A stretch of DNA of 64,000 bases, taken from the NCBI GenBank assembly GCA_044892505.1, contig CM097883.1:375968001-376032000 (forward strand), in the 5' to 3' direction. Shown piece after piece: positions 8,290 to 55,833 of this stretch. The translations under genes were made by a program, and so were the position numbers. Position 1 is the first letter of the stretch; each line of letters starts with the position of its first letter. The DNA is from Schmidtea nova (lineage: Eukaryota). The notes under the pieces are model-generated. The model saw only the letters and a list, made by a program, of their open reading frames with translations. It made no database searches and was not told the origin of the DNA.

Positions 8290-9230
8290 ATAAAAGAATC
8301 ATTGTACCACCAGAATTCCGCGAACAGTACTTGCAGAAATATCACAACATTTACCACCCAGGAAACAAAGCCACATATGAACTTTTGCATCCAAAAGTAA
8401 TCTGACCTTACATGAGAAGGGACGTAAAAACATTTGTTAGAAACTGTCCACAATGTCAAAAGAACAAAATAACGAAAAAAACAATTTAAAACAGCTGTGG
8501 TACAATTCCCTAGATCGGAGCCTTTCGAAACAATACACATCGACATAGTCGGTCCTCTACCACCCAATAACAAATACAAGTATTTGTTAACAATAATAGA
8601 TCGCATAAAGGAAATATCTGCAGCAAAGATTTGCAACAATTTAGAACTAAATTGGTTCGCACGGTATGGTTGCCAAAAAACAATAAACAGCGATCAAGGT
8701 AGACAATTCGAATCCGACATTTTCAAAGGACTTTGCAATAAATATAACATCGCAAAAAGCAGAAAAACAGCGTACAAATCCCAATCAAGCGGAAAAGTGG
8801 AAAGATTGCATCGATCGATAAAACAAGCAATCAGAACGAAGACAAATAATAACAACAACTGGTTGGAAAAATTACCAGAAATCTTCATAGGATAGCGCAA
8901 GATCAAACGGTATAAAACCTAGCCAATCGTTATTCGGACACAACACAAATCTACCAAACTTAAAAGACAAAACAGAAAACAAATTAAAAACAAACAACAA
9001 AATCAACGAACCACAAATAATAAAACTAAAAAGCATTCTGAAAAACAAAAACACTCACAAAACCAAAACAGACTAATAATAGACAAAGTCTTCATAAAGA
9101 AACCTTTCACTAGTGGCTTCGAAACAAAGTACGAAGGTCCATACAAATTACTAAATATGTACAAAAACGTCGGCACAATAGTAAAAGACTACAAGTCAAT
9201 CAAAATAAACACACGCTGATTAAAACCATA
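8290..9230 (+). pseudogene. Ty3/Gypsy integrase relic
   Basis: HHCC region (YHNIYHPG...NCPQCQ), core IHIDIVGPLP, SDQGRQFES and SSGKVERLHR, and a later GPY-like segment; broken by stops and frameshifts. Confidence 0.9.
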
Positions 9231-37331: not shown

Positions 37332-37454
37332 TTCTAGACGATTCGCAGATTGATTATGAGAATTCAAAATCATTCATACATTTCAAACCGATATACACTT
37401 AGAAATACAGGATGAATGACAACTTATACCCATAGAAATTTAAATAAAATAAAC

Positions 37455-39317
37455 TTGGATTAATCTTTTTCAAATATTTTTAATGACTTCGAATAATTTA
37501 TCGAACTTTGTGGAAATTCAGAAAGTTTCAACTTGTTAGGACTTTTAGAAGTCACAATGTTTCAACTTTTAATTTCCGACGTGTTTTTAAAGATTTGAAT
37601 AAAACCGATAAGGATAAATCTTTTTCAAATTTTTTCGATGAGTTCGATAAAGAAACCGAATTATTGTAAGAATCTGAGAATCTGAAGCTTCAGCTCGTTA
37701 TGACTTTTAGAAGTGACTTTTTTTCCTAAATTTAATTTTACTATGTATTTTTAAAAATTTATATAAAACCGATAAGGATAAATTTGTTTCAAATATTTTC
37801 AATGAATTCGATAAGCAAACCGGGCTTTATGGATATTCTGAAGGTTTCAGCTCGTTACGATCTTTACAAGTAACTATTTTCTTTGTTTTCATTTCCTACG
37901 TGTTTTGAAAGATTTGAATAAAACCGATAAGAATAAATCTTTTTTCAAATTATTTCAATGACTTCGATAGAGAAACCAGGTTTTGAGCAGACTCTAGACA
38001 AGTGTTTTTCAACCTGTGTGTCTCGACACACTAGTGTGTCGCGAGAGATTTCTAGGTTTGTCGCGAGATTTTGCAAACACATTTAGAATTTCTGAAATCA
38101 AGTCCAAGAAGCGAGAGACTCCTCAGAATTGATGATGAGATGCGGGTTTGCTTGTCAACTTTGAAGCCACGATGGAATATGATCTGTTCCCTTAAGCAGG
38201 CACAGCCATCACCCTGAATTAACATGTACAAAATGAAATCATTTAAATAAAATAACTTTAAAATATTTTTGTGTGTCGCGAAAATTCTCGGATATTTTTA
38301 GTGTGTCGTAACCCAAAAAAAGTTTGAGAAACACTGCTCTAGACGTTTCATCTCAATAAGACCTTTAGAAGTCACTGTTTTTCTTCTTTTACTTTTCGAC
38401 GTGTTTTTAAAGATTTGAATAAAATCGACAAAGGATAAATCTATTTTAATTTCTTTCGAAGAGTTCGATAAAGAAACCGCAGTTTAGGAAGACTCTATAC
38501 AGCTCGTTACAACATTTAGACGTCACATTTTTTCCTAAATTTATTTTCGACATGTTTTTAAAAATTGGAATAAAACTGATAAGGATAAATCTTTTTCAAA
38601 TTCTTTCGTTGAATTTGATAAAAAAACATGTTTTATGGATATTCTTAAAGTTTCAGTTCGGTATGACTTTTAAAAGTCATTGTTTTCTTTGTTTTAATTT
38701 TCGGAGTGTTTTAAGAAACTTGAATCAAATCGATAAGGATAAATCTTTTTCAAATTTCTTCGGTGAGTTCGATAAAGAAACCGAGTTTTGTGGAGACTCA
38801 GAAAGTTTCAGCTCGTTTTATAAAATTTTGTTTTATATAATTTGAATCAAACCGATCAAACAAAATCTTTTTCAAATTTTTTCGATGTATTCGATAAAGA
38901 AACCAAATTTTGGGGAGTCTGTGAATATTTCATCTCGAAAACAGTGACTTTTACAAGTCACTGTTTTTTTTTGTTTTTAATTTTCGACGTGATTTTAAAA
39001 ATTTAAATGAAACCGATAAGGATAAATATTTTTGAAATTTTTTCGATGAGTTAGACAAAGAAATCAAGTTTTCGGGAGACTTTGAATGTTTCACCTCGTT
39101 TCGACATTTACAAGTCACTGTTTTCTTTTTTAATTTTCAAAGTGTTTTTGAAAATTTGAATAAAACCAATAAGGGTAAATCTTTTTTATATGCATTGTTG
39201 ATGAGTTCGATAAAGAAACCAGGTTTTGAGGAGACTCTGAACGTTTCAGCCCATTAGGACCATTAGAAGTCATTGTTTTCCTATTTTTATTTTTGTAAAG
39301 ATTTGATTAAAATCGAT

Positions 39318-39362
<45 letters not shown>

Positions 39363-39700
39363 TCAAAGTTTTTGCTGAGTTATAGAAAAGAAACCGAATT
39401 TCACGAAGACTCTGAAAGTTTCGCTTCACTACGATCTTTAGAAGTCACTTTTTTTCCTAAATATAATTTTCGACGTGTTTTTAAAAATTTAAATAAAACC
39501 GATAATCATAAATCTTTTTCAAATTATTTCGATAACTTCGATAGAGAAACCAGATTTTGAGCAGACTATACGTTTCAGCTAATTAGGACTTTTAGAAGTC
39601 ACTGTTTTCCTTCTTTTAATTTTCGACGTGTTTTTAAAGATTTGAATAAAATCGATAAAGATAAATCTTTTTCAATTTCTTTCGATGAGTTCGATAATTA
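37455..39700. repeat. Diverged tandem satellite, unit about 150-165 bp, roughly 12 copies
   Basis: aaaccgataaggataaatc and ttcgataaagaaacc recur at ~155-bp spacing. Confidence 0.92.
38000..38336 (+). mobile_element. hAT (Charlie/Buster) deletion derivative inserted in the satellite
   Basis: TIRs aagtgtttttcaac / tttgagaaacactg; TSD CTCTAGAC; retains the transposase C-terminus KSKKRERLLRIDDEMRVCLSTLKPR...KQAQPSP*. Confidence 0.93.
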
Positions 39701-39748
39701 AATTTTCATTAAAATTTTCATTAATGCCAAAATACATCAAATGAACTA

Positions 39749-40298: not shown

Positions 40299-41033
40299 AC
40301 TTACGTAGATGTTGCATTTTGATATTTCGTATTTAAAATATTTTAATATGTGTTAGACATTCTGTAAGAAAAAATAAATTATACACACAAACACAAAACA
40401 TAATGAAAATTGCATGCAAACTTTTAAAGGTGTTATTTATTTCGCTATTAAAAATCCTATAATAAAGTTATTTATTTTTAAAATATGGTTTTTTGGTAAA
40501 TATTTGGAATATTTCCTAGGGAGTTGTTCAGAAAATGGATAGATAACATCGTAAGTTTTATTTTAACATAAAATTTCATATATTTCCAAAAATTATTTGC
40601 AAAATTTTTTCGTTTTCAGTAGCCAAAAAAAATAATTCAGTCTAATTACTTTAAAATTATAGACAAAATAACATATTGTTGGATCCACCATTTGGTCCAC
40701 ATTCGACATAAAAATAATAATAATAGGAAAACAAATAAGAATAAAGGAATATTAATGTACTTAAATAAATTCCATTAAAAAGGAATTAAAAGTAATGTAA
40801 AAATATAAATGGTCTGTGAAATCAAAAGAAATAAAATGTTAAATGTTAAAAAGTCATAAGAAATAATATCTAAATAGCATAAAATTGATTAACAATAGAA
40901 TTTAATAGTTAAATTAAGAAAAAAATTAAAGAAATTTTAAGTGAATTTAAACAAAAAATAAAAATGATTATTTGTAAATGAAATTGATTATTTGCTTTTG
41001 ATAAAATTATGTTAGAACATCAGCTTCACGCTG

Positions 41034-41097
41034 ATTGGTTCAAAAACGATTGGTTCAAAAACTGATCTGGTCAGTATAAATACTGATCCAGATTCAG
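41034..41097 (+). promoter_or_regulatory. Candidate promoter: two reverse CCAAT boxes and TATAAATA
   Basis: gattggttcaaaaac repeated twice (ATTGG at 41034 and 41049); TATAAATA at 41075-41082. A second TATAAA lies at 41646. Confidence 0.5.
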
Positions 41098-41297
41098 ATG
41101 AAATATCATCATCATATAGATAGAGATAAAATTTTGATTTATATTTGTTAAATTTTATGCTTCAGAAGAACTTTGTGAGCAACTAAAGGTATGAGACTTT
41201 GATTGTTTTATTGTTTTATTATTATGATTGTACTGTCATTGACCATTATATCAATAAATTTTAATAAATATGAATTCTTTTATTTTACGATTTGTTT

Positions 41298-41595
41298 AAG
41301 CTTCTTCCACTGTGAAATCGGTGGAAGGAGACGAAGGTATTGAAAAGTCCATTTACATTTTATTTTTGAGTCAATTGAGCTTCTTCCACCGTGTAATCGA
41401 TGGAAGGAGGCAACATTATTATATTCAGTTACTAATTAGGTATGAGTTATATTATTTATGGGTATATTTTGGTCGAGCTTCTTCCACCATGTAATCGGTG
41501 GAAGGAGGCGAATTTATATTATATATTGTATTTAAGTAGATATATACATATTATTCAAGGGGCTCCTGAACATCGTGAAATCGATGAAAGGAGGC
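41298..41595 (+). repeat. Four-copy ~35-bp hairpin array with unique spacers
   Basis: agcttcttccac(c/t)-gtg(a/t)aatc-g(g/a)tggaaggag at about 41298, 41378 and 41476, with a degenerate copy at 41568. Confidence 0.88.
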
Positions 41596-42046
41596 ATACT
41601 GTGCCGAGTAGAAGACTGCTCCGTACAGTTAGTCCGTCCGACTGGTATAAAGTGCCACTCGGAGGGTAGGATTTTACTAACCATAAATGCTAACATTTTT
41701 TATCACTGGACAGTACAGCCAGTTTGAGTTTGAGTTTAATTCTAATTTTGAGATAATCATAGATTGATTTTATTTTTGAGATAATAATAGATGTGATTAT
41801 TATTGATCTGATTTCATATTTGGATTAACAGAATGGTACCCTATTTTTACGATTGTCACATCTGGGGTTTGTTGGCTTAAAGCGGCTGAGATAAGGTTTA
41901 GAAATAAGTATAGAATACCCTTTGAACGAAGTAACACAAGAAATCGATAACCTTAATAGCGTAGTTCAGTGATCTACCACGCAAGTAGAATATCATCAAT
42001 AGGCTAAAGGATCAAATATTCAACACAGATAATTAATATAATTGAT

Positions 42047-42188
42047 TATCCTGAACCCTGTACATAGGGCAGTAGATCTTAGTTTTATTTTCAATAATTT
42101 ATTATCCTGATTGCTGTACATAGCACAGGCGTGAATAAATGAAATAAATTATCAAATGAATGTATCTGATCGCTGTACATAGCGGCAG
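42047..42188 (+). repeat. Three-copy bulged hairpin array (CTGTACATAG core)
   Basis: Copies at 42047, 42103 and 42163 with co-varying stems. Confidence 0.88.
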
Positions 42189-42310
42189 TGTTGAAAGTAG
42201 GTATATTATTTCTTTTCCTGAATTAGAAATTAAAAGTCGTAGAAATTAGGAGAGTTATTCAAACCAAAAAACCAAGTTCATATTGATAAACCATCTTGAA
42301 TTCTAGAAAA

Positions 42311-42843
42311 ATGTCAATCAACTCAGTAACTCATCAAGCAGAATTGGACAAGGCGTGGCGCATTATCCGCAGCCTGGAGAAAGAGATGTTGAGAAAATCA
42401 GAAAGGATAAAAGAAGCTGACATCACAATAGCACAATTAAAAAAGAGCTGAATGATGAATATAAAATGGAGCTGGAAGCAACTAAAATGGAATTAAGGAA
42501 ATGCTTAAAATCGGTAACGGCTTCTTACCTCAATCAAGAGTTGAAACAACTCATCCGTCCAATTACATATCAGCATTGGGCTGAAGAGAAGTCAGGCTGT
42601 TCAAAAGGAACAAATACGGATGAACCATCTCAGGTTCGAAAAATCCCAGTGCAAACTACACCAAAAAGCGTAGGAAATCCAGAGATTAAAAAGAAGAAGA
42701 AGAGTAAGATGGGCGCACGTCAGCGGCGCTGGAAAAAGCAAGTCCTACAACAATTGATACATCATTCGAAAGAAATACCGGAAATCGACTTAACTATGGA
42801 TTTCGTAGTAACTGATGAAGATATTATCAAATATTTTGAATGA
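42311..42843 (+). pseudogene. Coiled-coil ORF with Arg/Lys-rich motif and one frameshift
   Basis: MSINSVTHQAELDKAWRIIRSLEKEML...AQLKK joins by a frameshift near 42445 to ELNDEYKMELEATKM...KKKKKSKMGARQRRWKK...; ttctag acceptor just before the ATG. Confidence 0.6.
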
Positions 42844-43619
42844 CGACTTGAGACTTTTTAGTATTATTGAATTGTGTATAAAAATTTAGCTTAATTATAT
42901 GTTTTGTTTTTGTATTTATTTTATTATAAAGTATTGGAAATAAAGTATTTTATTAAAAATTTAAAATTAAATTAAATTAAAGGTAGATTATAAGTAACAA
43001 TAGGATTGACATAGATATAATAAACAATAGGAGCATCAAAGAGATAACATATTGTAATCGATTAAAGATTATCTGTTGATATTGTAAAGAAGGGGGCAGA
43101 AAAGAAACATTAAAATGCAAGACAAGGAATGCGGATAGATTAAAAGTAAAGCGTAAGTCCTTCTATCGGCAGCGAGACGAACCCGTGAACATAAATGGGG
43201 AGTAGTTTTAGCAATAGAGCTCACCTGCCCATCATTGTTCAAACACCTTGCACATTTCCAACTCGATTATTACAGGGAAATGATCGAGGGTGCTCGTGTG
43301 ATACGTAAGCATTTTATGTTTGGTCTTGGATGGAGGCATCCCTAGAGCGTTTATTTATTCTATCTTTTTGTTTTAACCCATCCAACAACCGCAACAATAT
43401 TTACACTTCAATTTAGACATTTTGAAGCCTCAGATAATACAGGATAATAAACTTTGCCAATTCTTGAAATAAAAAATAATCTTAATTAAATTATTTCTTG
43501 GAATAATTCAAAATATTTCAAAATTAGAAATAATTATAATAATTCTTATTAAAATATAATTTTTTAACTTACGTTAAAATAAAATAATTCCCAAAAAATG
43601 TTTAAAAAATCATGATTTC

Positions 43620-44114
43620 CTAAAAAGTATTGGATCGGCGCATCCAGCTCCGTTTGATATCTTTATCTTTTTGAAGCTTCTTTTCCTCATAACTTATAGC
43701 TTCCAGTTGTTTTCTACCGACCGCAACAGCTCGACGACCAGCTACAAATCCACTGGGATCGGTTTTGAATAACAGTGGCTTATCCATCTCCTTATCACAC
43801 GAAAATGGGATCATTGAACAGCCTAATGGCATCATTACAGCTGATTGAATATACGCTTGATTTATTTCGACAATACATAGACAAATCTTGTCACAGGACA
43901 TTTCGTAATCCAAATTACACTCACATCGTGCAGCTTCCATTTGTGCACGGCATACTTGCGATCCGCAATCAGGAATCATTTCGGTCCTAACGCAACCGGT
44001 ACTCTCATTTACGTTAAATAATCTTGTAGCTTGAACATCCACAAAAAGTAATCCATTCATCGCCATCGCTTTAAATGCATATTCGGTTCCCAATCGAAAA
44101 CGAAACATATCCAA
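43620..44114 (-). CDS. Intact 164-aa Cys-rich hypothetical protein
   Basis: Open frame in a GC-richer island within AT-rich DNA; many Cys in the central part; no family recognised. Confidence 0.5.
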   Translation of the reverse strand: MDMFRFRLGTEYAFKAMAMNGLLFVDVQATRLFNVNESTGCVRTEMIPDCGSQVCRAQMEAARCECNLDYEMSCDKICLCIVEINQAYIQSAVMMPLGCSMIPFSCDKEMDKPLLFKTDPSGFVAGRRAVAVGRKQLEAISYEEKKLQKDKDIKRSWMRRSNTF

Positions 44115-44810
44115 AATCCGAAATAAATTCCAATAAATTCAATTATTAACGAAGAAATTAAATTAAATCCACAAGATTAAATTATATTTTAAATTCCAAT
44201 CCATTTTACCGCCATAATTAATTAATCGAATAAATCACACAAGATCCAGAAGCCCAATTACAAAATTAATTAAAGATCGTATTCAGCAATTAAATTCAAA
44301 TCATTCATCCAAAGTTAAATTCTGCCAAGATAAATAATTAATTAATTAATCCGATAAAACAAATCCATCCATAAAGCAATTACTTCACAATTTGTTACAA
44401 AACATTTAAAAAACAAAACATGCGTCTTTCATTTAAATTTTCGTAATTATAATTAACACAAACCATTTCTAAAAAATTACACGACCGACCGCACAAACTA
44501 AGCATACCGAGCGAGCAAAGAGAAAATAAATACAGCACAAAATAACTCCAAAAACTGACAAACAACTATCGCAATTTATACAAGTGAGAGTGACATAGTA
44601 AAATATAACAAATAAGCAATTGATTCCCGTTCCAGCATCAAGAAGTCACATATCATCATCACCATCTATCATCTTTTCAAGTCACGAGTATAAATATCAT
44701 CTCAAAACTATCACTTGTGTCCGCAGAATTAGCACATACTACCACACTGCACACCAACAAAGACAAAACTACCCATTCCTACAAATCAAATTTTCTTGAC
44801 GCGATGGTGG

Positions 44811-45618
44811 CTAGTAGCCCCAACTGTTCTGATTCGGAATATGAGAATATAGAAACTGTTGTTGAGGCTGAGGTTGTGGCTGCTGAGATTGCTGTTGATT
44901 CTGACCAACAAAACTTACAAAAGCAAACGACCTAAACGGTCTTGGAATATAAATAGACTCAACTTTTCCGTATTGATTGAAGAAGCTCCGCAAAACATCA
45001 GCGGTTACAGCTTCCGATAATCTACCAACGTGGATTTTGTTGCGAACTTCGTTGGCTTCAGGATTCATCTGAACAGATTTCGAATATGGAATTTTCACCT
45101 CGCACCAGCGATTATCAATGCAATGCTGCTCAGCCAGACACATGACTTGTGCATCGTAATCAGCAAATCTGATAAATGCATAACCTTTACTCTTCAACGT
45201 GTCGGGCTCACGTTTCACCTGTACCATTACCACATCGCCGAATTTCGAGAAATACATTTTCAAAGCTTCGTCATCTGTTCGCCAAGGTATATTTAGCACT
45301 ATCAAATCTGTACACTTCTTCCCTTCCATTTTTTTTCGTTTTAGCTAATGTATATTGTTCATCGTCTGATTTGCGCTTATTATCTTTAAACAACACACAA
45401 GAATATGTATAAGTTTCCCACCCTTCAGGAGGCGGATAAAACCTATCAGAAGCAAATCTCACCCCTCGATATATGCCGGTGTCTTTACTTTTATATTTCA
45501 AACCTGTAGCTTTAGGAAACTGACAAGTTAATGTAGACGACAAGAGAGTTCCATCTTCCTCTAACGGTAACTCAATCGTCGGCTCTTCTTCTTCTTCACA
45601 AACAATTACATATTTCAT
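44811..45618 (-). pseudogene. TARDBP: Intronless TDP-43 homolog with a +1 frameshift and truncated RRM2
   Basis: N-terminal domain (EPTIELPLEEDGTLLSSTLTCQFPKATGLKY), KRK NLS region, RRM1 (DLIVLNIPW...KGYAFIRF...IDNRWCEVKIP), RRM2 start (IHVGR...IPRPFRSFAFVSF), then a short Q-rich tail; extra A in the A8 run at 45329-45336. Confidence 0.92.
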
Positions 45619-47101
45619 TTTTAACTTAGGTTTAAAATTCTCATAAATTAACTATAGAGATATTGATAAGACCGTCTAACGGCTTCCAGGCTCGCTCCAC
45701 AATCTCTCACAGCGATCAAGCACCCAATTAATTATTTTATTTATTATTTAATTAATTTTAAAAATATTTTAAGAGCGGGCGCGACCAAGTATTTAAAAAT
45801 TAAGTAAATGTAAGTGTAGAACATATAAAATAGAAATATTCGGAGAACGATTAATTTCATTAATAAACTTTTGCTAAAAAATAATTTTACTTATATTTAA
45901 ATAAAATACTTCCAAAAAAATTCATATTTTTCTAAAAAACTAATAAATATAAAATAATAATGAAGAATATAGATAACCTTTCAAAGCTTCTATAGTGATA
46001 TTACATCATTGTAAGATCAAAATAGAATCCTTAAAAGATATCTAGATAAATAAAATTACCTGATAGCCATTTTTAAAAAATGGCTAATTGAAAAATAAAT
46101 GTCACCGGGTGTATATAAATACTGTACAGTTAATGCAGCACCATCTTCATTCGATTCAAACCGTGATTAGCCAACAATACTGTCTTGATTTTGACTGTGC
46201 GTCTATATTTGAGAAAGTTGTGTGTATACTTAACTTACAGATATACCATGTAATGGGTGAAACAAAATTGCGTGTGTCAGAAAAACTGACACATTCGAAA
46301 CATTACAGCAGAAAACTGTACAAATTTTTAGCAAATTAAAGTTAGTGTTAAAAATACGAGTAAGTAAACATGCATCTATACACATATAGTTTTATAATGC
46401 AATGATTATACAAAATATATAAAAATAAATGACCAATAGGAAATAAGGATAATGATACTAGCTAGTTAAAAAATTTCAAGTACCTCTTCGAAAGGAATTG
46501 ATTGATATATGCCATTAGCTCATTGTATTAGTTTCACGCATTAAAAATTTCTAGAAAATTTCAACAGAAAAACAGGCCAATAAAAATGAAACATGTTGTA
46601 GCACACGTACACAGTGTACACATTTACAAATTTCAAATTATCGACTCAGTACATCAGTCAGTCTGCAGGATTAACACAGATAAACACACACACTCCCATA
46701 TGTATTTCAGTTATTTCAGTCATTTCAGTTAGATCTGTAAGCATTATTTGTTCCATTTTGTGCATGCTTTGGACAAGCAAAACAAATTTGCGAAGTACTT
46801 GCCAGAATATTCAAAGTAAGTTTTTTTCTTCTCTAACTTAACTTATTGAATATTTATAATTGCATTCGATGTAACCAAAGTTGTTACTACTATAAAGTAG
46901 AAAGGATTTATATTGTTTACGCTAACTATCAAACAGTAGATCTCACAGAATTAAATAATAAATGGTTAAAGAATATTTTTTTTGACGAGGACTAAAAATA
47001 CATGTACATGGTCTTATGGGTAGCAATTAAAAAAAATAAAAGGTTAGTCAAAACTTTAAATTTATTGAACTTAAACTTATTGAGATAAATACAAGAATTT
47101 C

Positions 47102-49083: not shown

Positions 49084-50274
49084 TCAATCCATTTTTATCT
49101 CCATTCGGTTTGATCCGTGCTTGTACCGAACAATCGTTTCTTCTCGCTCATAGATAACACTGCTGTATAATATAGTTTTGCTGACTTCAATTGTCGGATC
49201 TGCTTTCCTTTTCAACTCGTTTACTTCTCTATACATTGGGCCATATTCTAACAAGGGTTGGAGTTTCACCATGTTCCAGTTTGGTATTGTTTCCAGACTC
49301 TCTTCAACTGGATCTATCAGTGTTTCCATTGGATAACTCAGATCAATAGGAGGAACTTCGCTCTCTCCCATTACTATGTATTCACTTGTTAAATCTATTG
49401 CTTCCATAGCCATGTTCTCCAGGATTTGTGCTAACTTTTGCCTATCGGTTCCCTGAGTTGATTTGGATGTGTTGGTATAAAACTTTTTGTATTCCTTTAG
49501 AGAATACTTTCTTGATGGTTGTTTTCTGGGAATCACTATGTCGTCAATCCATTGATTCTCTATCCGTTGGTATATTTTCCGTATCGTTTTGACATCGTCC
49601 AGCGCAGAGTGTATCCAAACCTGCGTTTCTCCGCATATTTCCCGTGATACTGTCTGCAGCTTGAACCACTCTCCTCTTCTGGTTACATTCATTCTTTGTA
49701 GTATTTGTGCAGCTGCAAGATCCCGTATCCCATACAGTTGATCTACCCATATTCCCAGATACTGTAGTTCGGCATGTAAGTCGTGGCCTATTAATATTTT
49801 CCCCACTGTTAGCCTCTGAATATCCTTCATTTCCGAATATTGATCATGCTGATTTCTGCTGGCCACTTCTGTAATTCCATGGATCTTGGAATTGAAATAA
49901 CCAATTTTCCCCCTTGGGGTCAAATACACGTCTTTAACTATTTTTCCATGGTAATTTATCATCGCAACTGATAAAGGGATCATTTTTTTCGTTTCCGATG
50001 TGGCATATTCCGGGTCCACGAATATTATTCTGTTCCGAATTTCCTCGATATCCATTTCTTTCCTAATGAATGAGAGTTTCCTTTTTAACATTTCTGCTGA
50101 TATTTTCATCAACGTTGGATCCTGTTCCTCTGATGGTTGTGTGCTTGGCCTCTCATTTGGCTCGTTTTCTATTTTTGTTTCTAAAACAATGATTGTTTCC
50201 TCATTCGCTGCGCGTATAGGTTTCGCCGTGATTTCCATTTGGATCTTCCAGGACGACCATTTCTTCAATTCCAT
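49084..50274 (-). CDS. DEDDh 3'-5' exonuclease (REX4/ISG20-like), retroelement cargo
   Basis: ExoI IFVDPE, NSKIHGITE, ExoII ILIGHDLHAEL and ExoIII HSALDD, in order and spacing typical of REX4/ISG20-like nucleases. Confidence 0.85.
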   Translation of the reverse strand: MELKKWSSWKIQMEITAKPIRAANEETIIVLETKIENEPNERPSTQPSEEQDPTLMKISAEMLKRKLSFIRKEMDIEEIRNRIIFVDPEYATSETKKMIPLSVAMINYHGKIVKDVYLTPRGKIGYFNSKIHGITEVASRNQHDQYSEMKDIQRLTVGKILIGHDLHAELQYLGIWVDQLYGIRDLAAAQILQRMNVTRRGEWFKLQTVSREICGETQVWIHSALDDVKTIRKIYQRIENQWIDDIVIPRKQPSRKYSLKEYKKFYTNTSKSTQGTDRQKLAQILENMAMEAIDLTSEYIVMGESEVPPIDLSYPMETLIDPVEESLETIPNWNMVKLQPLLEYGPMYREVNELKRKADPTIEVSKTILYSSVIYEREETIVRYKHGSNRMEIKMD

Positions 50275-50543
50275 CCACGGCCTATTCGGTCCATTATTTC
50301 TACTGTTCCTTTGATAAGATGTAGGTATTATTGTTCTTTATTGGATATTCGAACTTCGTCCGTTAACTTCATTCCCATCTTTCGGTGTATTCTGAGTATT
50401 TTAATTTTCATTTTTCGGTCGTTGATTCTGAAATAATTTGGGATTTGTAAGTTGTCTGTAATCTGGAATTTTTGCCCTGCATGGCGTCTTTGCAGCTTTG
50501 CATAGTTGTCTAATGTGGATCTTGCCCATTGAATTTGTTTCAT
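50275..50543 (-). pseudogene. Disrupted N-terminal extension of the exonuclease ORF
   Basis: In the copy at 30294-30533 this segment is in frame with ME(L)KK; here it carries one stop and a 1-nt deletion. tttcag acceptor 5 nt before the ATG. Confidence 0.75.
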
Positions 50544-50619
50544 TCTTACTGAAATATTTATAATTAAAGGTTTATCAATTTAAAATTTGAATCTAGGGTT
50601 AAAATGAAGTGCCCGTATA

Positions 50620-50720
50620 TATAAATATTAATAAAATAAATATATAAAATAAATATTAATATAAAATAAATATTAATATAAAATAAATATTAATATTAAT
50701 ATAAAATAAATATTAATAAA
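50620..50720. repeat. ~17-bp AT-rich tandem repeat
   Basis: aatataaaataaatatt repeated about five times. Confidence 0.8.
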
Positions 50721-51010
50721 AAAATTACCAATTTAAAATTTTGAAATCGGATTTATTTAAAAAAAATTTAAGTTTAAAGGATTAACGCTTCCTTATATGC
50801 CCCTTACAAATTTTCTATAACCTATTTCCTACTTTTCTACTCCCCTTGTCCTTTAGTGCTAGCCAATCAAATTTATTCTTCCTTTATTTCGTCCGAAAAG
50901 CAGTTTTACATGAACATTGATGGCACTATCACTGATAACACTGAATAAAATGTAAAAAACTAATACTACTACTATGTTATCAAAATTGCATGCAAATTAA
51001 TCATGTCTTA

Positions 51011-52200
51011 CTACACAAATGTTTCTTCATAGATCATCCAAGGTCTCGAAGGCTCGGATTGAATCGTAGAAGGTCTGTATATTTTTATCGATTCGCAAAA
51101 GGCAATAGCGCCAAATGTGATGAGAAAGATTGTTAGGATAATGATAATTATAAATAATATCACACACGCGATTTCTTTGTCATTGTTTAATAATGATATA
51201 GTTTTATTATTTACAATTGATTTATTGGTGATGTCATTGAAAGGCGTTGTCATCTGATTTTGGTACAGTGTATTTGAATCGCTGTCATTCATCTTGTCGT
51301 AAAAGATTTGGACGAACTTTTCCTCGACTAAAGTTACTCGCCATAGATTAGAATACGAGATGCGACGCTGATATTTGATTTTCATAAAGACAAATTTTGA
51401 CCTTGATTTTGAGCGCAGTTGTTGAAAGGTTAATATTTGAGATTTATTGCTGCTGTCTAAGATTGCCTGAACTTTTCCACAATAGTATATGATAGCTTTT
51501 TGATTTGGGTCTGCTCTCCAAGTAACATTTATTAACTGATTGTAGATATAAAACTGAACTCAGTTCGTTTCGTTTTATCGCTTGTTGACTAGACTGAATT
51601 TCAATCCATAGATTATCACTGACCGTTCCATTATCATACAAGGATTTTTCATAATAACGAATTAAGATATTATATGTATGAAATAATTTCAAATTAACAT
51701 AGTTTATAAAGGGTTTTCTGCTGTTCAGCGTGTCTATAGCATAATTCTGGAAGACAGTTTTCACTTGTTGGGATTTTTGTGGTTCCCAATGTACATAAAT
51801 TCCATTCACAACGGGTTCAATCGAAACAAGATGCTATAACCTTTTCGTCCAAACAACGAGATGTACCATATTATATATTTTGGTAGTGTTCCCTTTAGAG
51901 CTTAATTGTGTTATTAGCCACTGATATTTATAATTCATCGTTAATTGCCTTGCCACGTGAATGTTTTTATTATAATTCAATCTAAATGAGGGTTCAAAAT
52001 AATCTAGTAAATTATTTACTTCAATTTCCTCTTCCCTTTAACCGTGAAAAAACCATACGATCTGGGTAGATGTTGCATATGTCAATTTTTTCCATCAATG
52101 GGATTCTTTTTGTTGCATACAAGGGAAAAACTCGTATTGCACTTGTACAAAAGACATTTGCCATCATTATTGTTGAAACCAATAAGACTTTGTTGATATA
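51011..52200 (-). pseudogene. Env-like type I membrane glycoprotein (ORF3), degraded
   Basis: Directly after integrase; signal-peptide-like KVLLVSTIMMANVFCTSA, N-glycosylation sequons (NGT, NKS, NKT) and a C-terminal TM helix IACVILFIIIIILTIFLITFGAIAF. Confidence 0.65.
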
Positions 52201-52202
52201 GT

Positions 52203-53840
52203 TTAGTGGAGCTGGGTTTTTGTAAATCTTTGTTTTACTGCTCCTTCTCTGTCTTTAGTCAGTTTTGATCTCAATGGATATCGTGTTATTTCCTCCGACG
52301 GAACTTTCTTGCACCTGTTTACATGAACAATTATTGTTCCAGCTTTTTTATTATTCTGTGGGCGTAATTTCAAATTAGTTTCTGTAGTATCACATACGAT
52401 ATATGGTCCTCTAAACGGTCGCTGCAATTAAGGGGATTATCCCTTTGTCAGCTCTGGTTTATTCACATATACTAAGTCTCCAATTTTAATATCATGTGCA
52501 TGAGTGCGCTTGTCGTAGCACTCCTTATATGCTTCTTGCTGGTGTTTTATTTTAAGTCCAGCTTGAATCCAAACTGTCTGGAGTCTTTCTTGCATAATCA
52601 CTTTATAATCCGATACATCCATATATTGGGAAATAGGCGACTAAAATTTCAGATCGATAGGCATATTGTTTCTTTGTAAGTACATGAGATAGAAAGGTGT
52701 TTTACCGGTACTTTCGTTCACTGCATTTCTGTATGCATACAAATATGGTTTAATGAATAAATCCCAATCTTTTTGTTTTCTATTTACGTATGATGATATC
52801 ATGTTAATTAATGTTCTATTAAATCTTTCCACTAATTCATCTGTCTGTGGATGGTATGGTGATGCACTGATTTTCATTATTCCAAAAAATTCTGTAATTG
52901 ATTTGAACAATTCGCTTTGAAGATTTGTTCCTTGGTCGGTAAGCAATTTGTTTGGTGCCCCATATCGAAATATTATGTTTTCCACAAATATCTTTGCAAC
53001 TGTCTCAGCTTTCTGGTTTTGCATGGGGTAGGCTTCTGGCCATTTGGTTAAACAATCACAGAAGACAATGATGTATTTATTGCCGTTTGTCGTTTCTGGT
53101 AATGGACCGACAATATCCATTGCCGTCATTTCCATTGGTGCCTCCGGTACAGACATTGGTTTTAAAGCAACTCTAATTTTTCGTCCTGTGTTTCGTCTAG
53201 TTAAGCATATTTCGCAAGTATGACACCATTGTCTGACATCTTGTTCTATTGTGTCCCAATAGTATTTTTGTTTTAATCTTGACAATGTTTTTCGAGCTGA
53301 TAAATGCCCTCCTAATGCTCCGTCATGATACAACAATAATAATGATTTTCTATGTTTTGTTGGAACTATAATTAATAAATTTTCATTTTTTACGCATTTT
53401 AGCAAACCATCATGTATAATGTATTTATGTCTTTCCTCGACAATATGCTTCCAGTCGCTTTCTTTTCTAATTGTGACAGCATGTTGACGTAGCTGATTCA
53501 ATTCATCATCCTTTTCTTGATCACTTTGCAATTCCTTCATATTATTTGCAATTTTAATTGCCATAAATATAGTGTTTTCGTACTTTGTTTCATATTGAAC
53601 AACGTCCTTCTGCTCTGAAATTCTCGACAGCGCGTCTGCATTTGCGTTTGACTTTCCTGTACGGTATTTGATCTCAAAATCATATTCCTGAAACGCAATT
53701 GACCATCTTATCAGCTTACTTGCCGAGTCTCTGTGCTTCATTAGCCATTGTAAAGGGTCATGATCAGTGAAAACAACAAATTTTCTACCGATTAAGTATT
53801 GCCTGAACGTAGTAATCCAATATACTAATGCTAACGTTTC
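52203..53840 (-). pseudogene. Gypsy pol 3' half: RNase H C-terminal part and integrase
   Basis: ETLALVYW...FTDHDPL, NADALSR, HDGALGGH...CHTCEIC, MDIVGPLP, TDQGTN, VERFNRTL and GPY; frameshifts near the end. Confidence 0.95.
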
Positions 53841-54241
53841 AGCTTAACTTCCAATTTTCCAACGATATTCAATACATTATGCGCCATTGATTTAATAATT
53901 TTCGTTGTTGGCTTTATTCTTGCCTTTTCCTGTCTCGTCAAGAGGTTCTCAGATACTATGCTGTGGCTTGAGCCTGAATCCAATAACGCTTCAACTTTTC
54001 TTCTATTAAATTGTATGTCAATTCGAAGTTGTTTTCCTCCCAATTCTATGGTCATTAATGCATAACTACATGGTAAACCAAGCATATTCTTTCTTGCAAT
54101 TTCGGCGCTCGATGGTTCAATATTTTCTAACTCGACCTTAATATCATCAACTGGTTTCATTTCTGTCAAATTCTCACTTGGGTATACAGGAGCTGTTGGC
54201 AAAAATGTCGGTGTGTACCATTTAGAGAGTGTCAATTCCAA
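53841..54241 (-). pseudogene. Gag end and retroviral aspartic protease, truncated
   Basis: ALLDSGSSHSIV active-site motif; joined by deletion to RNase H, so RT is missing here. Confidence 0.88.
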
Positions 54242-54419
54242 TTAGTTTTGGTATTGGTTCCAGCAAGAATCTGGATTCGGGTTCTATTCTACGTTTTATT
54301 ATACCCCTTCGAAACGATTTTGGCTCTGATCGGCCGCCATTGCTATCATTGTTGTAACTATTATTTTTATCCTCAAATTCGCATTATGATTCTTCACTTT
54401 TCGGATCATTTTTCAATTG

Positions 54420-55320
54420 TTCTCTAACACTTGCCATTTCCTTATATTGATGATTTGTAATGAAGAATCTAGACAAAAATGGAATTCAACCAATAATCAT
54501 TTTCCATGACCATCCGGAAATTGCATATATTCGTTAAGCGTAAAATATTTGTGATAATATTACTTTTATTGTTACTGCAACTACATAAACGCCAAATACA
54601 CAAATGCTCAAGCTTGTCCTAAAAACATATATCTTCCCCAATTTTTTTCCATTGTCTTAAACGTAGCTCGTTTAAAATGATCAGGTGTCAGTAAATATTC
54701 GTAATTAACTTTTCCTTCTCTATTTGGCAGTATTGTATCAATCATCTTAGAAATCACTCGTTCTTTTTCGAAGGAATAACAAATTTCTTTGGGTTTCTTC
54801 TATATCTTCACTCGCATATAGACCCATTTGTGCCATTTTATTCATTGATGTGAAATTTACCAAGTACTCTAAATTTATTAATTCCAATTTATCTGGAGTT
54901 CTAACTCCCCGGTAATCTGGTAACGCTATCCATGAATTTTGTGCTAAACGATATAATGAAGCTAATAGTCGATTACATTGTAGAATTTTCGGTTTGACTT
55001 TTTCTTCCAACAATATTCGAGTTATGGGTTCCATGAATCGTAATTTCCCGCCAACACTTACCGGTAATTCATTTGTACATTTCTCATATTTCGCGATTTT
55101 CACTATAGTTTCCTTGCATTTGTAACTGTATAATGCTTCTCCAAAGATCCTAGCGAATACACCATTTTCTTATATTAGCATGGGTGCTACTAAATTTGGA
55201 TTGGTAATTGCCATTGCAATTGGATTTCTAAGTATTTCCTTGTTCAACTTACAGTTGTTTAGAATCATTTCTCTATATACATTTTCCATGATGTTTTGAC
55301 TAAAATGAAACAAATAGTCA
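54420..55320 (-). pseudogene. Class III (herpes gB / chuvirus G-like) envelope glycoprotein, C-terminal half
   Basis: NNCKLNKEIL...GVFARIFGEALYSYKC...KCTNELPV...FMEPITRIL...C...W...GLY, then TM segments and ISGWSW; pattern recalled from chuvirus-like G proteins in LTR elements. Confidence 0.75.
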
Positions 55321-55366
55321 ATTTTATTATTAAAGTAATAAGTTAATTTGATATCATCCCGGTGAA

Positions 55367-55414
55367 TTCTTGTTTTAGCCTCATATACAATCGTATATGA
55401 GGCTAAAACAAGAA
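55367..55414. repeat. Perfect palindrome, 22-bp arms, 4-nt loop
   Basis: ttcttgttttagcctcatatac-aatc-gtatatgaggctaaaacaagaa. Confidence 0.95.
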
Positions 55415-55833
55415 AGGGATGTCCAATTGGAAGACTTACCCTATCGCTGAAAAGTGCAGAAACAACAAGTTTAACTGTAATTGTGTATTGAAATTCAAAT
55501 AAAAGTTATTGTATTGGGTTTTTTTTCAATTGATTTATAAAGAAAGGACACGATGAGTCAGAGAGTAACCAACTATTTCATAATAACCCAAAATATTAAT
55601 TGAAAATTTTCCTTCTGTAAAACTGAACTGTCATAGCTATGCATTTGAACTGACTATTATATCAATAAGTATCTTAAAATCTTTTGTTGAGCTTTTTCTT
55701 AAAATAATTAATACAGAGTCCACCACAAAATCTAATTTTGGCGGTTATTTTTAAAGATCTGTAGAAAATATGATTATTTAAAAAAAATAAAACAATTAAG
55801 TCATTTAAAAATGAAGTTTTGCCTCCAGGATTG

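Follow-up and report, generated by a model that had tools for sequence, protein, structure and literature searches.

Within the window, that is, the whole 64,000-nt stretch of Schmidtea nova DNA that was analysed, lies the solo long terminal repeat (LTR) of a Burro-type gypsy retroelement. This LTR contains a protein-coding gene of its own, here called ORF-B, and an array of three small hairpins upstream of it (Table 1).

Table 1. Features of the LTR and of its surroundings, in window positions
Feature	Position	Strand	Description
Tandem satellite	37400..39740		diverged; units of ~154 nt
Solo LTR, Burro-type giant gypsy element	40677..43396	+	2,720 nt; TG...CA ends; ATAT target-site duplication
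Predicted promoter	41033..41082	+	two GATTGG (CCAAT) boxes and TATAAATA; start inferred near 41100
Predicted first splice donor	41186..41194	+	exon 1 would end at 41188
Upstream hairpins	41301..41670	+	four long stems with UG(A/U)AAU apices, plus a double hairpin
Hairpin 1	42051..42072	+	2-nt bulge, 5-bp stem with G.U, UACA loop
Hairpin 2	42107..42128	+	form as hairpin 1
Hairpin 3	42166..42188	+	single bulged A, extra U.G pair
Predicted splice acceptor (TAG)	42304..42306	+	4 nt ahead of ATG
ORF-B	42311..42843	+	196 aa when intact: predicted coiled coil, linker, basic helix, acidic tail
Basic motif KKKKKSKMGARQRRWKK	42688..42738	+	[MIL]G-x-basic-rich core common to all lineages examined
Conserved 3' block	43141..43345	+	donor-like site 43151-43160; candidate poly(A) hexamer at 43190
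Proteasome-subunit-like piece	43620..44138	-	adjoins the LTR
TDP-43-like gene	44811..45651	-	apparently intron-less, split over two frames; adjoins the LTR
Second gypsy-type element	49084..55505	-	decayed; integrase and Monjiviricetes-type fusion domain

When aligned to other copies in the genome, homology breaks off exactly at the two LTR ends given in Table 1, and a 4-bp target duplication was found in all eight solo copies with both ends printed. The window copy is solo, its TG...CA ends and short duplication enclosing no internal domain, and it has many relatives in its own 1.25-Gb genome (40 of 1,122 candidates were scored). The same LTR borders elements bearing gag, pol and env. In three two-LTR elements, LTR pairs of about 99% identity surround an internal region, with a primer-binding site (PBS) directly after the 5' LTR. 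A domain scan of the internal ORFs of two-LTR copies identified RING, Gag with CCHC (two knuckles), protease, ankyrin and TRAF/MATH domains, together with RT, RNase H and integrase. The setting is a retroelement with several accessory genes, which supports this side of the complex-retrovirus-like module suggested in the first-pass annotation. One of these elements (L019) also encodes a Monjiviricetes-type fusion domain (PF24664) between gag and protease; in the other two elements, the ORFs that were scanned gave no match to this env-like domain. The same annotation had placed the hairpins in a leader downstream of a PBS-like site. That site lies inside the LTR and is not a PBS, since full-length copies have their true PBS downstream of the LTR, and the array likewise sits within the LTR, so that a post-PBS leader was the wrong context for it.

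The PBS begins about 6 nt past the LTR end (L014, L020 and L087, just after the 5' LTR) and is presumably Pro-type; a scan of six loci for the primer tRNA recovered no tRNA gene. The PBS core has 4,165 matches in the genome, and among the first 40 of these another LTR family is present at 26. Directly before the 3' LTR (L013, L016 and L099) there is no plain polypurine tract, and one two-LTR copy has a second PR-RT-RH-IN set upstream of gag (L097:2438-5527), likely a nested gypsy element. Beyond the LTR, the proteasome-like piece may sit in a repeat because it overlaps high-depth sequence, and the region of the second gypsy-type element also holds a 417-aa ORF with no Pfam match at 1e-3, which by eye we take to resemble a DEDDh exonuclease.

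From the motifs in the LTR, we infer a transcript with a short exon 1, an intron holding all of the hairpins, ORF-B as exon 2 and an R region of about 2 kb. Of the 24 loci tested, 21 retain the CCAAT and TATA motifs, in leaders that otherwise defy alignment. A donor-like motif, whose definition was set once the TATA results had been inspected, occurs 85-185 nt farther downstream; 61 of 72 loci have it, compared with 6 of 72 for a control window. At the other end of the predicted intron, a YAG stands 1-5 nt ahead of the ORF-B ATG in 64 of 65 copies with a start, as against 225 of 931 other leader ATGs; YAG also directly precedes several internal accessory ORFs and a second LTR gene, and does not clearly do so for the gag frames. 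The array is placed in the predicted intron because it falls between these conserved donor-like and acceptor-like sites, about 70-240 nt upstream of the first acceptor in both array-bearing clades. Left unspliced, the window leader presents 15 ATGs ahead of the ORF. Between donor and array lie the upstream hairpins (z -3.0 to -5.0), and a strong hairpin pair is found at this position in every lineage examined, ORF-less LTRs included (19 loci fold; L131 is weak).

Downstream of ORF-B, the 3' block retains about 80% identity across otherwise unalignable LTRs, and its candidate poly(A) hexamer reads CATAAA in the window and AATAAA or GATAAA in sister families. The predicted start near 41100 and end past the ORF would together imply an R of about 2 kb and make the solo LTR a whole transcription unit. 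An alternative TATA box at 42876, which would place the ORF in U3, was rejected, as that site is not conserved. Four unlabelled sequencing runs covered the flanks and the LTR alike, which is the behaviour of genomic DNA, and thus they say nothing on splicing.

ORF-B starts at the ATG at 42311. The first-pass annotation had reported the next ORF after the hairpins as a coiled-coil protein with an arginine-rich motif; the ORF and its basic motif are real, but the 140-aa frame at 42421-42843 is only the distal part of a 196-aa ORF. In the window the frame is broken, 58 nt being absent after 42449 relative to all five copies compared. Elsewhere it runs without a stop in 138 of the 150 best-scoring copies (counted by eye in a set biased to intact copies), and 51 intact copies gave a median dN/dS of 0.10 over the 405 pairs with dS between 0.6 and 1.5, with 452 of 1,275 pairs saturated. 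ORF-B is under purifying selection, with dN/dS of about 0.1. In a structural model (pLDDT 71, pTM 0.27), long helices extend as far as residue 100, the linker is disordered and the basic motif is helical.

The protein appears to be an orphan in the searches made. No homologues were found in a word-indexed protein search (lengths 107-343 only) or among 1.84 billion representatives searched with a 12-sequence profile; the low-confidence model had no fold match in a viral library, atlas leads were all below 0.9, and Pfam returned weak coiled-coil-type matches only, below the cut-off. Homology to Rev, Rex, Rec or Rem was not found by Pfam, sequence, profile or fold searches. A leucine-rich export-signal pattern is present in 6 of 11 ORF-B tails and in 208-494 of 500 shuffles, so that no nuclear export signal pattern was detected in the tails above shuffles. 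At first look, about 8,500-9,200 candidate loci in the genome resemble ORF-B.

All three hairpins reported by the first-pass annotation are present at the positions in Table 1, where CTGTACATAG has three exact matches within 125 nt compared with about 0.1 expected in the whole window from base composition. The two-nucleotide bulge claimed for each of them holds for hairpins 1 and 2; hairpin 3 instead has a single bulged A plus a U.G pair. Single hairpins fold with energies close to those of shuffled sequences (z -1.1 to -1.2), and the evidence for them is therefore comparative, not energetic. A strict hairpin pattern has 2,678 matches in the genome and none for the reversed control. In a survey set of 79 LTR loci, 20 of which were picked by the hairpin pattern, 219 hairpin instances were found in 75 loci, the remaining four being deletions or truncations. 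Copies are not independent events, and the diverged lineages number about ten. The array comprises two to four units and is still present where ORF-B identity has fallen to about 40% and the intervening DNA is unalignable. What stays constant is the bulged A with a G before it, the 5-bp stem, and the UANA loop with its closing G.U. The constancy of the loop (GUA-N-AU) is partly built into the search pattern, and in the diverged clade a scan that left the loop free recovered a degenerate hairpin upstream whose apices differ.

Each of the four free stem pairs is formed in 214-215 of the 219 instances. In 36 variants, hand-picked from 67 distinct ones and mostly leaving out single decayed copies, four of the five pairs vary on both sides, and none of 500 shuffles attains the covariation score. 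Every one of the upper stems originally read as perfectly covarying ends in a G.U wobble. Non-canonical pairs favour G.U on the sense strand, with 18 G.U against 2 A.C in diverged lineages and 21 against 9 over all copies. Among 36 near copies, array columns vary by 1.4% and spacers by 7.9%. The hairpin is a sense-strand RNA structure under selection, and the earlier suggestion of such a structure near an element-encoded protein is borne out by the covariation, the G.U bias and the selection on the ORF.

These observations bear directly on the view that the repeats are quasi-palindromic transcription-factor sites acting at the DNA level, targets of some other host RNA-binding protein, or neutral. 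Repeats in an LTR that look like inverted repeats, and whose single hairpins are not unusually stable, would be expected under such a view. However, the compensatory changes and the 18:2 bias of G.U over A.C point to sense-strand RNA, neutral repeats are excluded by the low variation of the array, and an Rfam scan found no family match, its only return being a chance match to CRISPR-DR25 (E 1.7). We regard this group of explanations as distinctly unlikely.

As an alternative, the first-pass annotation had read the array as a threefold dimerisation signal, in which the UGUACA palindromes would form kissing loops. At the third loop position, C, U, G and A occur in 168, 37, 9 and 5 instances, respectively, so GUAC is present in 168 of 219 and the U variant still gives a self-complementary UAUA loop. 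The remaining 14 loops (UAGA and UAAA) lack a palindrome and turn up repeatedly across several diverged families, only 11 of 44 diverged-clade hairpins contain TGTACA, and the outer bases of the palindrome are paired in the stem. There is moreover no GC dyad, unlike the retroviral DIS loops described in the available text of PMC12789967. Because the palindrome is not conserved, dimerisation by kissing loops is very improbable, and the original proposal is largely refuted.

A host protein is a better candidate. The apex presents UGUANAUA, and the array might recruit a host Pumilio (PUF) protein so that unspliced RNA is repressed, stored or routed. UGUAHAUA occurs in 192 of the 219 hairpins and UGUANAUA in 197, with at least one perfect site in each of the 20 diverged elements tabulated. 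The free loop base corresponds to position 5, which PUM2 barely discriminates, and predicted structure does not lower occupancy in vivo, although it limits PUM2 access in vitro, according to the accessible part of the same study (bioRxiv 10.1101/403006); functional sites in a 3' loop are known from viral RNAs (PMC13692250, available portion). Against recruitment of Pumilio, four of the eight site bases are predicted to be paired, the bulged A and lower stem are unexplained by PUF binding, and perfect sites are present in only 27 of the 44 diverged-clade hairpins. First and last hairpins can carry compensated C-G or G-C pairs at positions 1 and 8 with loop and bulge unchanged. The pair below the G.U is U-A in 197 instances, G-C in 11 and C-G in 4 of the 219, indicating that the reader need not require UGUA; besides UGUANAUA, the natural hairpin types include GGUANAUC and CGUANAUG. 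On balance we consider Pumilio recruitment unlikely, though it competes seriously with reading by ORF-B.

The distribution of the array relative to ORF-B was assessed in a PBS-anchored sample consisting of the first 40 of the 4,165 PBS matches. Three loci have both array and ORF-B, four have ORF-B only (in one of them, other DNA seems to have taken the place of the leader), five have only the shared 3' block and 28 have none of these. The array therefore comes with ORF-B in all three array loci of this sample, as the first-pass annotation would predict, but ORF-B and its basic motif persist without the array in sister families (L115, L116 and L142). One of these, the L115 family, is very young, with 47 of its 150 top matches 100% identical; it has kept the basic motif, and no array was found in its LTRs or in the internal stretches of one element, in a scan in which positive controls scored. 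Two of the 75 array elements (L067 and L073) had no ORF-B match. Both keep ORF-A, a second LTR gene of about 160 aa located between array and ORF-B in the diverged clade (L057-L074, e.g., L064:3249-3725). ORF-A was also noted in L115 and L142, is missing from the clade of the window, has no Pfam match and is directly preceded by YAG at all five of its located starts.

In a tree of the 3' block, the array-bearing clades lie on one side of a branch with support values of 83/97 (not starred), and array-less carriers of ORF-B fall outside them, for which reason ORF-B is probably older than the array; support in the ORF-B protein tree was too low to order events. It would seem that the ORF came first and that the array is a clade-specific acquisition made afterwards. 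Six sister LTRs with a PBS have neither ORF-B nor array (L108, L112, L118, L123, L131 and L132); they retain the post-donor hairpin pair and, except for L132, the 3' block. As judged from this distribution, a cognate pairing of array and protein is only half supported.

The same distribution weighs on the possibility that the array is part of a psi genome-selection signal, read by the zinc knuckles of Gag and lying in an intron, so that unspliced RNA alone would be packaged. Psi is usually found 3' of the major splice donor. The available text of PMC12789967 locates it in the 5' UTR and gag. The array would lie 3' of the first donor, and hence be missing from spliced RNAs, and Gag with two CCHC knuckles is encoded by the element. 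Intron-less LTR copies gave no matches in the genome (one subfamily pattern, run without a positive control), and copies that have lost array and ORF are rare. One such loss is a 1-kb deletion at a short microhomology, common to two loci (L042 and L044) and having just two exact matches in the genome. These two copies are 94% identical and have different flanks, which argues against psi function in that two insertions share one deletion of array and ORF. In addition, sister families have spread without the array, most copies lack an unpaired G in the tetraloop, and the post-donor double hairpin, kept in all lineages examined including the ORF-less ones, is a better psi candidate. A packaging role for the array is accordingly quite unlikely in our view.

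We propose that the hairpins are likely to be repeated docking sites for a structure-reading protein on unspliced RNA. A reader of structure is favoured because hairpins that do not present UGUA are conserved, and a reader encoded by the element is suggested by the confinement of the RNA site to one element clade, structured operators of this kind usually having such a reader. ORF-B is the favoured reader because its gene adjoins the site and its own predicted mRNA would not contain that site. We put the probability that the ORF-B product reads the array, and thereby favours retention or export of unspliced RNA, at roughly 35%. Transcription would start near 41100 and end past the ORF, and splicing from 41188 to 42307 would yield an ORF-B mRNA without the array and with 14 of its 15 upstream ATGs gone, so that only unspliced RNA would keep the array. 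In the least certain step, ORF-B, perhaps in oligomeric form, may then use its basic helix to bind the array, and bound ORF-B could lower the share of spliced accessory mRNAs in favour of genome-length RNA, following the logic of Rev and Rex. Two points speak against reading of the array by ORF-B: the basic motif may do no more than direct the protein to the nucleus or nucleolus, and array-less ORF-B families exist, one of them very young.

A more far-reaching version is doubtful. It would see in this gypsy LTR an independently evolved, complete Rev/RRE-like switch, with a spliced regulator gene and a multi-hairpin operator in that gene's own intron; solo LTRs would be cassettes acting in trans on full-length elements, and sister families would use different RNA operators for the same protein.

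Burro elements are already known, and the combination of an LTR gene and a hairpin array does not appear to have been described. The literature found on Burro LTRs describes no internal gene or hairpin array, and the figures or supplements of the original 2018 paper may show the ORF. Export or splicing regulators in the literature found were confined to complex retroviruses, the sources being retrovirus and piRNA reviews. An orphan gene under selection and a covarying RNA motif in the LTR of an abundant giant retroelement pose a small, testable RNA-protein question, at the core of which is how an element with many spliced accessory genes keeps some of its RNA unspliced. The 8,500-9,200 ORF-B-like candidate loci suggest that solo LTRs may be expressed genes and not debris. 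If Pumilio, a stem-cell regulator, proved to be the reader, the element would be tied to the host through that regulation of stem cells.

Burro, or GYPSM1, denotes giant gypsy-like LTR elements of planarians (PMC6431247). As characterised in the available text of that source, Burro resembles the window element in its RING, Gag with CCHC, PR-RT-RH-IN, ankyrin and TRAF/MATH domains, in its long LTRs and in its thousands of copies, and resembles L019 in an env-like fusion domain between gag and protease (present in one copy here). That text mentions no LTR-internal gene, intron or hairpin array. The copies described here differ from it in being about 19-27 kb plus insertions and in having no BIR or BCL2 domain match in the ORFs scanned. 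By domains and LTR features, our assignment of the element matches the Burro type.

The TAR hairpin of the Tat/TAR system stands at the extreme 5' terminus of the nascent transcript. By comparison, the array lies about 950 nt past the inferred start, and not at a 5' end. Protein-coding sequence within an LTR is shared with MMTV sag and rem and with HIV nef (PMC12789967, available text). Those genes lie in U3, whereas ORF-B is downstream of a conserved TATA motif and would therefore belong to R, and the solo LTR here would constitute a whole transcription unit. A splice donor upstream of the poly(A) signal is known from the foamy virus LTR, as set out in the accessible part of PMC3694450, and here a donor-like site stands about 40 nt before the candidate hexamer; unlike in foamy virus, the hexamer is non-canonical in the clade of the window, and the donor is a predicted one. 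In presenting UGUANAUA at a hairpin apex the array is reminiscent of HSUR1/2 of Herpesvirus saimiri and of Pumilio response elements (PMC13692250, available portion), but the site is partly base-paired here, and some units swap U1 and A8 for compensated pairs.

The closest functional parallels are the export systems of complex retroviruses, Rev/RRE, Rex/RexRE and Rem/RmRE (PMC12789967, in the part available). ORF-B differs from the proteins of these systems in having no sequence or fold similarity to them and no export signal detected above shuffles, gene and hairpins are both inside a predicted 2-kb R, the carrier is a gypsy element rather than a retrovirus, and array and protein do not go together throughout the family. 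We do not class the module with Rev/RRE, because tests of homology and of family-wide co-occurrence both failed. The likeness lies in the arrangement, namely a small protein with a basic motif from a predicted spliced RNA, and a structured, multi-hairpin RNA that, as predicted here, only unspliced RNA would retain.
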